IMG/VR virus record: IMGVR_UViG_2859821903_000001
Length of the DNA: 46,213 nucleotides
Source: a virus
Lineage: Duplodnaviria; Heunggongvirae; Uroviricota; Caudoviricetes
Reading direction: 5' to 3' (one strand)
Positions 41,304 through 46,213 of the stretch are shown in pieces; position 1 is the first letter of the stretch; every line of letters starts with the position of its first letter. The position numbers were made by a program.

Positions 41304-44300
41304 TGAATTTTATAACCCAGAACGGGCGTCAGAAATGACGCCTTTTTTATTGCAGAAAAGCGAGAGGTAATTATGCGTAAACTTTATGCTGCCATTTTGT
41401 CCGCAGCCATTTGTCTGGCCGTATCCGGTGCGCCTGCATGGGCGTCTGAACATCAGTCCACGCTGAGCGCGGGGTATCTTCATGCCTTGACGAACGTTCC
41501 CGGCAGCGATGATTTTAACGGGATTAACGTGAAATACCGTTATGAGTTTACGGACACACTGGGGATGGTGACGTCATTCAGCTATGCAGGAGACAAGAAT
41601 CGCCAGCTTACCCGTTACAGCGATACCCGCTGGCATGAAGATTCCGTTCGTAACCGCTGGTTCAGCGTAATGGCGGGGCCGTCTGTGCGCGTGAATGAAT
41701 GGTTCAGCGCGTATGCGATGGCGGGTGTGGCTTACAGTCGTGTGTCGACTTTTTCCGGGGATTATCTCCGCGTAACTGACAATAAGGGGAAAACGCACGA
41801 TGTGCTGACCGGAAGTGATGACGGTCGCCACAGCAACACGTCTCTGGCGTGGGGAGCTGGCGTGCAGTTTAACCCGACCGAATCCGTGGCCATTGATATT
41901 GCTTATGAAGGCTCCGGCAGTGGTGACTGGCGCACTGACGGGTTCATCGTGGGTGTCGGTTATAAATTCTGATTAGCCAGGTAACACAGTGTTATGACAG
42001 CCCGCCGGTTCAGGCGGGCTTTTTTGTGGGGTGAATATGGCAGTAAAGATTTCAGGTGTACTGAAAGACGGCACAGGAAAACCGGTACAGAACTGCACAA
42101 TCCAGCTGAAAGCAAAACGTAACAGTACCACTGTGGTGGTGAACACGCTGGCCTCAGAAAATCCGGATGAAGCCGGGCGTTACAGTATGGACGTTGAGTA
42201 CGGTCAGTACAGCGTTATTCTGTTGGTGGAGGGATTCCCGCCGTCACATGCCGGGACCATCACCGTGTATGAAGATTCTCAACCCGGTACGCTGAATGAT
42301 TTTCTCGGTGCCATGACGGAGGATGATGCCCGTCCGGAGGCATTGCGACGTTTTGAACTGATGGTGGAAGAGGTGGCGCGTAACGCGTCCGAAGTGGCAC
42401 AGAACACGGCAGCCGCGAAGAAGTCAGCCGGCGATGCCGGCACATCTGCCAGTGAGGCGGCAACCCATGCGACTGATGCTGCAGGCTCAGCACGTGCAGC
42501 CAGCACGTCAGCCGGACAGGCCGCTTCGTCGGCTCAGTCAGCGTCTTCCAGCGCAGGAACAGCATCAACAAAGGCCACTGAAGCATCAAAAAGTGCTGCC
42601 GCCGCAGAGTCTTCAAAAAGCGCGGCAGCCACCAGTGCCGGTGCGGCGAAAACGTCGGAAATGAATGCCGCAGCATCACAAAAATCTGCGGCCACATCTG
42701 CATCCACCGCGACCACGAAAGCGTCAGAAGCTGCCACCTCAGCCCGGGATGCGTCGGCCTCAAAAGAGGCAGCGAAATCATCAGAAACGAACGCATCATC
42801 AAGCGCCAGTAGTGCCGCTTCCTCGGCAACGGCGGCAGGCAATTCCGCGAAGGCGGCAAAAACGTCCGAGACGAACGCTAAGTCTTCTGAGACGGCAGCG
42901 GGACAGAGTGCCTCAGCTGCGGCAGGCTCAAAAACAGCGGCTGCGTCGTCTGCCAGTGCAGCGTCAACAAGTGCCGGGCAGGCCTCAGCCAGTGCTAGCG
43001 CCGCCGGAAAATCGGCAGAAAGCGCTGCATCGTCCGCTTCAACAGCCACAACGAAGGCTGGCGAAGCCACTGAACAGGCCAGCGCAGCAGCGAGGTCTGC
43101 TTCCGCAGCGAAGACATCCGAAACGAACGCGAAAGCGTCGGAAACCAGCGCAGAATCCTCAAAAACGGCTGCCGCATCGTCCGCCAGTTCGGCGGCGTCA
43201 TCGGCATCATCTGCGTCTGCTTCAAAAGATGAGGCGACCAGACAGGCGTCAGCAGCGAGGGGCAGCGCCACGACGGCATCCACGAAGGCGACAGAGGCTG
43301 CTGGCAGTGCGGCAGCGGCAGCACAGAGCAAAAGTACGGCAGAATCCGCAGCAACGCGCGCTGAGACAGCGGCAAAACGTGCAGAGGATATTGCATCCGC
43401 CGTGGCGCTTGAGGATGCGAGCACGACGAAAAAGGGGATAGTACAGCTCAGCAGTGCGACTAACAGCACTTCCGAGTCACTGGCGGCAACGCCAAAAGCA
43501 GTTAAGGCCGCGTATGACCTGGCTAACGGGAAATACACCGCACAGGATGCAACGACAGCACAAAAAGGAATTGTCCAGCTCAGTAGTGCAACCAACAGCG
43601 ATTCTGAAACACTGGCCGCAACGCCGAAAGCGGTAAAGACAGCATATGACCTTGCTAACGGAAAATATACCGCACAGGACGCCACCACGGCACGAAAAGG
43701 TCTTGTCCAGCTCAGTAGTGCCACCAACAGCGATTCTGAAACATTTGCCGCGACTCCGAAAGCGGTGAAAGCTGCCAATGATAATGCAAACAGACGCGTT
43801 CCTAACGAGCGTAAGGTCAATGGCAAACCACTGACCAGTGATGTCAATGTTACATCGCAGGATATTTTTAACGGTCAGAGTATTGGGATTGGTGCAAACC
43901 AGAATCTGGATAATTACAAAACGCCGGGACTGTACCATCAGACACTGAATGCGAATACAAGCGCATCGCTGAAATACCCGGAGAATTGTGCAGGTACTCT
44001 GGTTGTGCTTAAAAATGCCGGAATAACACAAATTTACTATGTCTATAACACATCAAGAAGCTATACCCGCAGCCAGTATTCAACGGGTGGCTGGACACCA
44101 TGGACACCGCAGGATTCATTTCCGGTAGGTGCTCCAATCCCGTGGCCTTCTGATTCAGTACCTACAGGCTATGCCCTGATGCAGGGGCAGACTTTTGATA
44201 AAGCAGCCTATCCCCTGCTTGCAGCCGCTTATCCGTCAGGCGTGATCCCTGATATGCGTGGCTGGACAATTAAGGGCAAACCCGCCAGTGGTCGCGCTGT

Positions 44301-46213
44301 ATTGTCTCAGGAACAGGATGGTATTAAATCGCATACCCACAGTGCCAGTGCATCCAGTACGGATTTGGGGACGAAAACAACCAGTTCGTTTGATTATGGT
44401 ACTAAGACCACGAATAACACCGGGGCGCATACCCATAGTGTTAGCGGTACGGCTGCTTCAGCCGGTGCACATACCCATTCGATGACATTTGTTTCAGGTG
44501 GTTCCAGTGGTGCTCCGGGAAGTGGATCACCTGATTATTCTAAATACAGTGTTAACACTTCTTCTGCAGGCGCTCATACGCACTCTGTATCGGGTACTGC
44601 TGCAAGCGCAGGTGCACACGCACATACTGTAGGTATTGGTGCGCATACGCACTCGGTTGCGATTGGTTCACATGGACACACCATCACCGTTAACGCTGCT
44701 GGTAACGCGGAAAACACCGTCAAAAACATCGCATTTAACTATATTGTGAGGCTTGCATAATGGCATTCAGAATGAGTGAACAAGCACGGACCATAAAAAT
44801 TTATAATCTGCTGGCCGGAACTAATGAATTTATTGGTGAAGGTGACGCATATATTCCGCCTCATACAGGTCTGCCAGCAAACAGTACCGATATTGCACCG
44901 CCAGATATTCCGGCTGGCTTCGTGGCTGTTTTCAACAGTGATGATGCATCGTGGTATCTTGTTGAAGACCATCGGGGTAAAACAGTTTATGACGTGGCAT
45001 CAGGGGACGCGTTATTTATTTCTGAACTCGGTCCGTTACCGGAAAATGTCACCTGGTTATCTCCGGAAGGGGAGTTTCAGAAGTGGAACGGCACAGCCTG
45101 GGTGAAGGATACGGAAGCAGAAAAACTGTTCCGGATCCGGGAGGCGGAAGAAACAAAAAACAGCCTGATGCAGGTAGCCAGTGAGCATATTGCGCCGCTT
45201 CAGGATGCTGCAGATCTGAAAATCGCAACGGAGGAAGAAAACTCGTTGCTGGAAGCCTGGAAAAAGTATCGGGTGTTGCTGAACCGTGTTGACACATCAA
45301 CTGCACCGGATATTGAGTGGCCTACAGTACCTGTTATGGAATAATCGTTACTGCTGTAGCCATAATAACGTCATATACAAGAGTTTGCTGGATTACGAAG
45401 AATGCGCGCTGATTTTGAAGATAAAATCAGTGGTACAAAGTCCGAAAGGCCTGGGCTGAAAAAACTACTCAGAATATTATCGGCAGGTGACACACTGATT
45501 GTCTGAAAGCTGGACTGACTGGGGGCGTTTTTTCTTCCATGTTATGGGGCTCAGGCCGGAATGGAACGTGAACTGACTGTTAAGAGAACAATAGTCGGGT
45601 TTTGAGGCTGCGAGATTACATAGAGTTAATTGGTCGGTTAATAGGGTATAGAGGTTATCCAACTATTCGTTACGACATATATTGTTGTTACCTACAAGTT
45701 ATGAAAAATGTATTATTTTATTATTTTTTTTTGTATGTGCAGATTAATACTTAATACGCATCAATCTGCACATTTGCTTTTGTGAGAGAATTATCGTTGT
45801 AAGAGTGATTTAATATTGTTGGCGACTACTTCAGGATTATTATCATAGACCATATAAAACTTATCACTAAGTAAAGGTAATGATAGGTTTACGACCTCCT
45901 CGTCTTCTTTTTTTAATAAGGTCAAAAGTTTTACGTCGCCACTCGATATTTCGCTGGCTAAAACTGCTCTTAATTCTTTTTGAGGCCATTCCTTATTGAC
46001 TGAATTAGCAGATAAAATAGCGATGACATATTTTGATTTAACTAGTGCTGCATTTATTTTATCAATTAAGGAGTCGCCCCATTTTATCTCAACATGATCT
46101 ATGAAGGCTGAAATTTTAAGTTTAGTTAACTCGTCATATATTGGAATTGCAATGTCTTTTTTGTCTTCGCTTGCATGGCATATAAAAACATCAAAGTTTT
46201 CTGTTTCTTTCAT

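Follow-up and report, generated by a model that had tools for sequence, protein, structure and literature searches.

The window analyzed here, 46,213 nt of virus DNA (IMGVR_UViG_2859821903_000001), is a near-complete lambdoid prophage, and near its right end the genes for a side tail fiber (stf) and its assembly chaperone (tfa) are followed by a piece of a serine invertase gene. This locus is very likely a fixed, non-invertible fiber module of the lambda/StfR type with a dead fragment of a PinE-type invertase behind it, a scar that has spread among prophages together with changing cargo. The earlier note on this DNA had read it as an expanded, recombination-prone repeat array beside a decayed host-range switch. 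By its sequence, stf-tfa classifies as a side-tail-fiber module of the lambda/StfR type and a standard mosaic of known modules. All parts of the locus belong to known kinds, and the invertase pseudogene is already annotated in RefSeq relatives. Beyond correct annotation the significance is small; the only mildly new angle is that the scar may be the border and homology arm of a position with variable cargo.

The Invertase Remnant Behind tfa

The 54-nt junction between the tfa stop codon and the invertase homology (45345-45398, plus strand) is common to the prophages of E. coli EC13, AR17.2B and Esc28, and its first 8 nt are as in lambda. It is followed on the same strand by a pseudogene of a pinE-type serine invertase (~45399-45639), which was delimited by DNA alignments with intact pinE and with the other copies of the scar and which corresponds to pin nucleotides ~75-415. 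The earlier note had reported a Pin/Gin-type fragment of 34 aa immediately after tfa. This fragment is real, and the remnant is larger than that: the 34-aa open reading frame (ORF; 45402-45506, plus strand) is merely its longest open piece. The ORF matches Pfam Resolvase (PF00239) significantly, with E = 1.4e-6 and 28.9 bits at a cut-off of 23.3. In a tblastn search, residues 31-126 of e14 PinE align to 45414-45599 (E = 5e-17). At the nucleotide level the scar is 82-85% identical to pinE, and 33 of its 36 best-preserved codons match PinE. The PGAP annotation of relatives has a ‘recombinase family protein’ in the same stretch, marked as frameshifted or incomplete. These alignments identify the fragment as a true remnant of a PinE/Gin/Cin-type invertase.

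The remnant carries lesions over its whole length. Firstly, pin homology begins only at pin nucleotide ~75 (window ~45399), and codons 1-25 with the catalytic Ser10 have been lost along with the promoter and the crossover site upstream of the gene. Secondly, the remaining frame is interrupted by a 1-nt deletion in the T-run at 45413-45416, by a TGG and a CGA codon that have become TGA stops (45504-45506 and 45516-45518), by a 101-nt deletion between TGGGGCG repeats (~45521/45522) and by one more frameshift. Lastly, the homology ends at ~45639, pin nucleotide ~415 of 555, which means that the C-terminal helix-turn-helix (HTH) domain is gone; in the intact Pin of the lambdoid locus L070 this domain (HTH_7) occupies residues 138-178. 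The 34-aa frame itself is broken in the AR17.2B and Esc28 copies by internal deletions of 1-2 nt.

Any remaining function of the scar DNA or of its 34-aa ORF, for example as a small protein or as the relic of a Fis-bound enhancer, is extremely improbable. The part of pin that is kept in all lineages, nucleotides 75-210, is the region which we take, by comparison with Hin, Gin and Cin, to hold the recombinational enhancer, and this would fit such a function. However, AR17.2B and Esc28 have different breaks in the reading frame, and as crossover sites in cis are missing, there is nothing on which an enhancer could act. Moreover, the retention of this part is explained by its position at the shared junction, with erosion proceeding from the 3' side.

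Search for Switch Parts in the Window

An invertible fiber segment needs crossover sites, and in e14 these are CTCTCGAAAACCTTGGTTTGGGAGAA inside stfP and TTCTCCCAAACCAACGTTTATGAAAA ~55 nt before the start codon of pinE. Residual sites of this kind, which the earlier note proposed to look for at the flanks of stf-tfa, were searched for in stf-tfa-pin (42031-45800) with the e14 half-site, the AAACCNNGGTTT core and a degenerate 26-mer, and none was found with any of them. The 26-mer was built from the e14 and L070 sites and finds only the two true sites in each of them at up to one mismatch; its best matches within 42031-45800 have 6/18 mismatches, which is the background level. The only match of the pattern in the whole window, with three mismatches in gene J (38733), was rejected as chance level, since 7 of 100 shuffled sequences yield at least one match.

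A tblastn search of the whole window with four Tfa types and the variable part of StfE found no inverted stf'/tfa' cassette and returned the single plus-strand stf-tfa only. The spacer of ~45 nt between tfa and the scar was considered as the end of an inverted tfa' and rejected, as its minus-strand reading is unlike the C-termini of tfa' (…PTPPAVQAR followed by the stop). A promoter and terminator scan of 45200-45900 gave nothing above shuffled sequences. Since the window has no recombinase, no crossover site and no second cassette, no inversion is to be expected here now, whether in cis or in trans, and a listing of this locus among phase-variable host-range switches would be wrong.

Spread of the Scar and Cargo Beyond It

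Counts of E. coli genomes given here are out of 5,426 complete genomes, and the junction of tfa to pin is present in 186 of them. The same junction together with the same 1-nt deletion occurs in prophages integrated at prfC (window, EC13) and at ssrA (AR17.2B, Esc28), which points to a single origin of the scar. What lies beyond it differs. In Esc28 the pin homology is lost at ~codon 95 and RnlA/RnlB come next (L009 6496-7921), whereas in the window, EC13 and E. coli C21 it is lost at nucleotide ~415 and is followed by a retron type XII gene that encodes a reverse transcriptase fused to a TIR domain (RT-TIR). In AR17.2B pin is kept to its stop codon, and ORFs of 70, 114 and 343 aa follow (L003 8746-10470), which have no Pfam or PADLOC match. 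The RT-TIR gene is cargo beside the scar and stands outside the fiber locus.

The AR17.2B copy also indicates how cargo may be exchanged. Over pin nucleotides 81-195 it diverges by ~20% from an e14-like element with an intact pin. In the alignment of the two (L003 8076-10700 with L013 3113-5740), the first ~115 nt contain 23 of the 34 mismatches, and the next 2.5 kb are 99.6% identical. This marks a sharp recombination breakpoint inside the scar and shows that the scar is able to serve as a homology arm for the exchange of cargo; as judged from these alignments, it can be transported as the flank of a cargo cassette.

It is possible, and we propose it tentatively, that the PinE-type scar marks the inner border of a cargo and defense hotspot which reaches from tfa to attR in lambdoid prophages at prfC and ssrA, and that it acts as a homology arm for right-end cargo swaps with unrelated e14-like elements. 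The arrangement resembles the cargo/defense hotspots of P2 and P4 prophages (PMC9122126) in that differing anti-phage genes occupy a fixed place near the prophage end in related prophages. It differs from them in that, in these lambdoid prophages, an invertase pseudogene in decay forms the proximal border, and the likeness is drawn from four contexts. In any case the scar is a handy landmark of a position with differing anti-phage genes, which fits the known presence of defense cargo at prophage ends.

The pair of 114-aa and 343-aa ORFs also comes after pin in the e14-like elements L013/L015 at ssrA, where pin is intact, and it could be an undescribed defense system. If the hotspot reading is true, this pair is a candidate defense system beside the retron type XII and RnlAB cargo. 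A further observation concerns E. coli C21 (L008 5920-6230), where a large deletion in the prfC-site prophage ends at the position that corresponds to window ~45376, at the scar. Apart from int and a small number of early genes, only the scar, the retron and dinI are left of that prophage.

Origin of the Remnant

The intact PinE-type relatives of the scar nearly all adjoin an invertible fiber segment. A set of 62 viral-contig loci from IMG/VR was used in which an intact PinE-type gene (86-100% amino acid identity) is preceded by at least 3.5 kb of upstream DNA. A crossover site is found ~80 nt upstream of this gene in 61 of the 62 loci, a second site 1.6-4.2 kb further upstream in 57, and an inverted tfa in 54. 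Because intact PinE-type genes adjoin invertible fiber segments this regularly, it is likely that the scar descends from an invertible cassette, and the pin fragment was probably once part of a working one somewhere in its ancestry. The switch may or may not have stood in this very locus.

The best described of these cassettes is the P segment of e14 (stfP/tfaP, tfaE/stfE, pinE), a relative of the G segment of Mu with Gin and the C segment of P1 with Cin; the segment and its sites have been described (PMC4272514, PMC12529663). Its pinE is homologous to the scar, and the variable part of StfE and TfaE are homologous to the distal part of Stf and to Tfa of the window. Unlike the window, e14 has an intact PinE of 184 aa, a second cassette in inverted orientation and two sites of 26 bp that lie 1.8 kb from each other. 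Two of the PinE-type loci, L070 and L071, are lambdoid. L070 has a tip protein with J-type domains, a phage_tail_N Stf and tfa; its tfa' and stf' are inverted, the two crossover sites and an intact pin are present, and umuDC-like cargo comes next. These two loci are like the window in having J, a phage_tail_N Stf, tfa, a pin that closes the fiber locus and cargo beyond it, and unlike it in their inverted tfa'/stf', both sites and an intact pin, which is ~77% identical to the scar.

Exchange of fiber genes among unrelated phages has been ascribed to fiber-associated invertases (PMC3945230, citing Sandmeier 1994). The distal Stf module of the window starts (44116) where it aligns with residue 20 of StfE, directly after the peptide VGLGEG that is encoded by the e14 site. 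At the boundary of the distal module, the stf of lambda contains the relic of a half crossover site (L002 ~2303-2334), CTTGAATACCTTGG as compared to CTCGAAAACCTTGG in e14, which encodes LEYLGAGEN; in the window a different module occupies this position.

Several results weigh against a switch that decayed in place. Neither an intact pin nor an inverted cassette was found beside a lambda-type tfa in any of 49 IMG/VR loci with at least 400 nt of downstream sequence, and two of these 49 have the same scar. In 80 PinE loci the Tfa and distal Stf modules of the cassettes are only 27-38% identical to those of the window. The remnant is nearer to pin of the e14 type (84-88%) than to the lambdoid pin of L070 (77%), and the spacer of ~45 nt that separates tfa from the pin homology has no recognized origin. 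Taken by sequence, the remnant may have arrived from another kind of element. The switch suggested in the earlier note thus survives in part: the fragment is a true PinE-type remnant whose intact relatives nearly all lie by a site in cis, but the locus has neither a site nor an inverted cassette, and no intermediates were found among the 49 loci.

Accordingly, the pin fragment might never have belonged to a switch of this fiber locus and might instead be the left flank of a ‘pin-cargo-att’ right end from an e14-like element, in which case the scar reports the switch of another element and not that of a lambdoid fiber. Such a flank could have been acquired by recombination between prophages that share an att site, by fusion of tandem prophages through deletion or by illegitimate joining. 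Right ends with the order pin, cargo, att do exist in e14-like elements, as in e14 itself (pinE-mcrA-attR), in L015 (pin, two ORFs, smpB) and in H7 (pin and then a GIY-YIG gene), and in AR17.2B the stretch from pin nucleotide ~200 to the end plus the cargo has the above-mentioned 99.6% identity to an element of this kind. The e14-type character of the remnant, which is not of the L070 type, and the lack of a lambda-type tfa among the invertible cassettes point in the same direction. Yet the oldest shared part of the scar (pin nucleotides 75-200) differs by 15-20% from all intact alleles in the sample, lambdoid prophages with a switch in cis exist (L070/L071), and the distal Stf module starts exactly at the position of a crossover site, as expected of a former cassette arm. 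We consider this import of a flank rather unlikely on balance.

A solitary invertase next to tfa, able to act in trans and without a segment in cis, is another conceivable source. Such enzymes are present in Rac, Qin and HK225; in HK225, tfa, dinI and an intact invertase precede attP and there is a single fiber gene. PinQ and PinR invert the e14 P segment in trans, and they are only 38% identical to PinE (PMC12529663). The HK225 enzyme is 55% identical to PinE, and all three are of other subfamilies than PinE. These distances contrast with the close match of the best-preserved scar codons to PinE, and together with the site in cis at all but one of the intact PinE-type genes they make an origin from a solitary invertase quite improbable.

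Anatomy, lesions, the common junction, the differing cargo and the lack of sites are shown by the sequences, and the order of events for the fixed module and its dead PinE-type fragment is inferred as follows. In one old event the 3' flank of tfa would have been joined to pin nucleotide ~75, which would have removed the pin promoter, the adjacent crossover site and the catalytic serine, plus the inverted stf'/tfa' half-cassette if it was ever present here. Decay of the scar and its spread through lambdoid prophages at both prfC and ssrA would have followed. On the 3' side the scar would have been replaced on several occasions by different cargo, here by the RT-TIR gene of retron type XII and dinI and elsewhere by RnlAB or unknown ORFs, and at least once the scar would have been used as a homology arm in a cargo exchange with an e14-like element.

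Length of Stf and Constancy of the Heptad Array

The earlier note gave Stf a length of 909 aa, longer than the 774 aa of lambda, with the extra length in the Ala/Ser-rich region, and these statements are borne out. The ORF that starts with GTG at 42031 has 909 codons; the real start is probably the homologous ATG at 42037 (MAVKIS), as annotated in EC13, which results in a protein of 907 aa. For comparison, the Stf of Ur-lambda was rebuilt: orf-401 and orf-314 of NC_001416, which a known frameshift separates, were joined and gave 774 aa. Of the net 133 extra residues, 105 fall in the Ala/Ser region as one block of 15 heptads (residues 304-408 in the 907-aa numbering; 315 nt, 42946-43260, plus strand), which was delimited by alignment with the rebuilt protein and which is missing from lambda Stf and present in StfR-type genes. 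The remaining difference in length is made up of two extra 44-aa Phage_fiber_2 copies and another central module, against which the distal GxHxH part is shorter.

The Ala/Ser-rich shaft (42391-43431, plus strand) consists of ~49 uninterrupted heptads with the pattern x-A-x-x-S-A-x, as seen from repeat spacing and autocorrelation. All direct-repeat spacings within 42300-43900 are multiples of 21 nt, and the autocorrelation of residue identity is 0.38-0.42 at lags of 7, 14, 21 and 28 versus ~0.18 at other lags. Of 50 units in the heptad register, 47 have Ala at position 1, 37 have Ser at position 4 and 34 have Ala at position 5, and the register is unbroken throughout. The array presumably forms a coiled-coil-like shaft.

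Array length was compared with a query of 1524 nt that runs from the N-terminal domain through the entire array and includes the first fiber repeat. DNA spans were used because the best 120 protein matches are of the same length by construction and mostly partial proteins. The query is covered to at least 80% in 3,560 of the complete E. coli genomes. Approximately 40 array-spanning rows were drawn evenly down the identity ranking, from 97% to 88% identity, and their span equals that of the query, including stfR of the K-12 Rac prophage; the exceptions are +132 nt, which is one fiber-repeat unit, and -3 nt. Among cultured phages the long form of the array is present in mEp460, ev099, mEp332 and 2H10. 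Lambda, DE3 and HK629 have 1156 nt for query positions 1-1471, a form that is exactly 315 nt shorter, and most other cultured phages share only the first 350 nt of the query. H108 and H109 were considered as short-array alleles and rejected, as they are cut-off or replaced stf genes. In EC13 (Stf of 1116 aa) the Ala/Ser region is identical in length, and the protein differs from that of the window only between the first fiber repeat and the distal module. Variable among relatives are the number of 132-nt fiber repeats and the central module.

The Ala/Ser array is therefore the standard StfR form of conserved length, with no gap in any of the full-length rows sampled, and neither a recent expansion nor a contingency repeat. 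‘Expanded’, as the earlier note called it, is correct relative to lambda, by 15 heptads, but not relative to the closest relatives, which have the same length. The description as recombination-prone does not hold, as the length is invariant among StfR-type relatives and phages have two discrete alleles 315 nt apart; this constancy of repeat copy number across relatives is what the note itself had named as speaking against its reading. That the array is hypervariable and was recently expanded in this lineage is very improbable and already refuted at the sampling depth used. The greater length compared to lambda and the diverged internal duplicates at multiples of 21 nt could have suggested it, but the sampled rows and genomes and the two discrete phage alleles contradict it, and TRF detects no clean tandem array in the region.

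StfR-TfaR of the K-12 Rac prophage and of the lambdoid phages with the long form is the closest known system. It shares with the window the N-terminal domain, the shaft length (gapless over query positions 1-1482 at ~94.5%), the position after J-lom and the same tfa partner. It differs in having one Phage_fiber_2 repeat where the window has three, and the central module of the window is a different and shorter one (907 aa in total versus 1116 aa for the StfR-type protein of EC13). Unlike the window, Rac has an intact PinR of another subfamily after these genes and no PinE-type scar. Stf-Tfa of Ur-lambda shares the N-terminal domain, the first fiber repeat, the distal GxHxH module and Tfa (94%), and differs in its 15 fewer heptads, its single fiber repeat, another central module, the half-site relic and the lack of pin sequence after tfa.

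Anatomy of Stf and Tfa

The stf gene (42037-44760, plus strand) is an intact ORF in which Pfam recognizes phage_tail_N, three Phage_fiber_2 repeats, Collar and Phage_fiber. The N-terminal tail-attachment domain (phage_tail_N, PF08400; 42037-42438, plus strand) comprises residues 3-136 of the 909-aa ORF (E = 4.2e-72) and matches the profile over its full length (1-134 of 134). Behind the shaft follow, on the plus strand, three tandem Phage_fiber_2 repeats of 132 nt (44 aa) at 43412-43807, of which lambda, K-12 StfR and EC13 have one copy each. The subsequent central module (43808-44115, plus strand) is an uncommon allele that differs from the closest prophage relatives and does not align to EC13. 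The region 43300-44250 is covered to at least 80% in only 51 of the complete genomes, with the best match in a tail fiber gene on a 115-kb plasmid. Lastly, the distal receptor-binding module (44116-44760, plus strand) is lambda/StfR-like, with a collar (residues 700-747) and GxHxH repeats, and it is homologous to lambda Stf through to the C-terminal end. The adjoining tfa (44760-45344, plus strand) is intact and encodes a Caudo_TAP chaperone of 194 aa (E = 2e-43) that is 94% identical to lambda Tfa. By analogy with the lambda Tfa family, the distal Stf module is presumably folded with the help of this adjacent Tfa.

Across the heptad region runs an antisense ORF of 437 aa (42534-43847, minus strand), where the AT skew is strongly positive (0.35-0.43). 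This ORF is most likely a by-product of GCN-rich repetitive coding. Lambda has a comparable annotated ORF, orf206b, on the strand opposite orf-401.

Surroundings of the Fiber Locus

An integrase ORF (385-1608) is followed by the late genes, with the J region at 36.5-41.3 kb, and the order J-lom-stf-tfa of the lambdoid late operon is present. The lom gene (41373-41972, plus strand) encodes an Ail/Lom outer-membrane protein (Pfam Ail_Lom, E = 3.5e-119) and lies directly 5' of stf, as in EC13 and lambda. The right end has the order lom, stf, tfa, the short open frame at 45402-45506, an AT-rich stretch and a minus-strand TIR gene. The AT-rich stretch (45640-45790) is the 3' flank of the retron cassette, in place of the 3' third of pin; it contains the hairpin GTGCAGATT...AATCTGCAC, and no consensus terminator was called in it. 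The last 423 nt of the window (45791-46213, minus strand) encode the C-terminal TIR domain (TIR_2, E = 1.6e-19) of the retron type XII RT-TIR anti-phage gene, which is cut by the window end and whose TIR domain is formed by its last 140 codons.

EC13, the closest relative among complete genomes, has the same order, in which a ‘TIR domain-containing anti-phage reverse transcriptase’ of 534 aa and a DinI-like gene come last before the chromosomal gene prfC. The full-length homologue in EC13 (L001 13518-15122, minus strand) is recognized by PADLOC as RT-TIR_XII (E = 3.7e-187), a reverse transcriptase fused to a C-terminal TIR domain. Together the retron and the DinI-like gene form the EC13 cargo (L001 13518-15742), after which prfC follows in the relatives. 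A search for the msr/msd of the retron in L001 13000-16000, which lies outside the window, gave no relevant match with the general Rfam models used.

Gene J of the window (36517-41303) aligns to the 1132-aa J of EC13 in eight pieces in alternating frames, and an IS2 element at 39775-41103 (plus strand) splits it near the 3' end. The fragmentation is due either to heavy pseudogenization or to sequencing errors. Unless the frameshifts are sequencing errors, the prophage would be unable to build a tail tip and its fiber host range would be moot; stf and tfa are both still open. The junction of J with this IS2 (39600-39950) was found neither in any of the 5,426 complete E. coli genomes nor in the GTDB species representatives searched, and the source strain is thus not among them. 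A patch within J (38987-39314) has no homology to the J of EC13. A second IS2 is located at 1902-3232 (minus strand). The two copies of 1331 bp each are 99.7% identical and inverted, with ~36.5 kb of prophage between them, and homologous recombination between them could invert the interior of the prophage.

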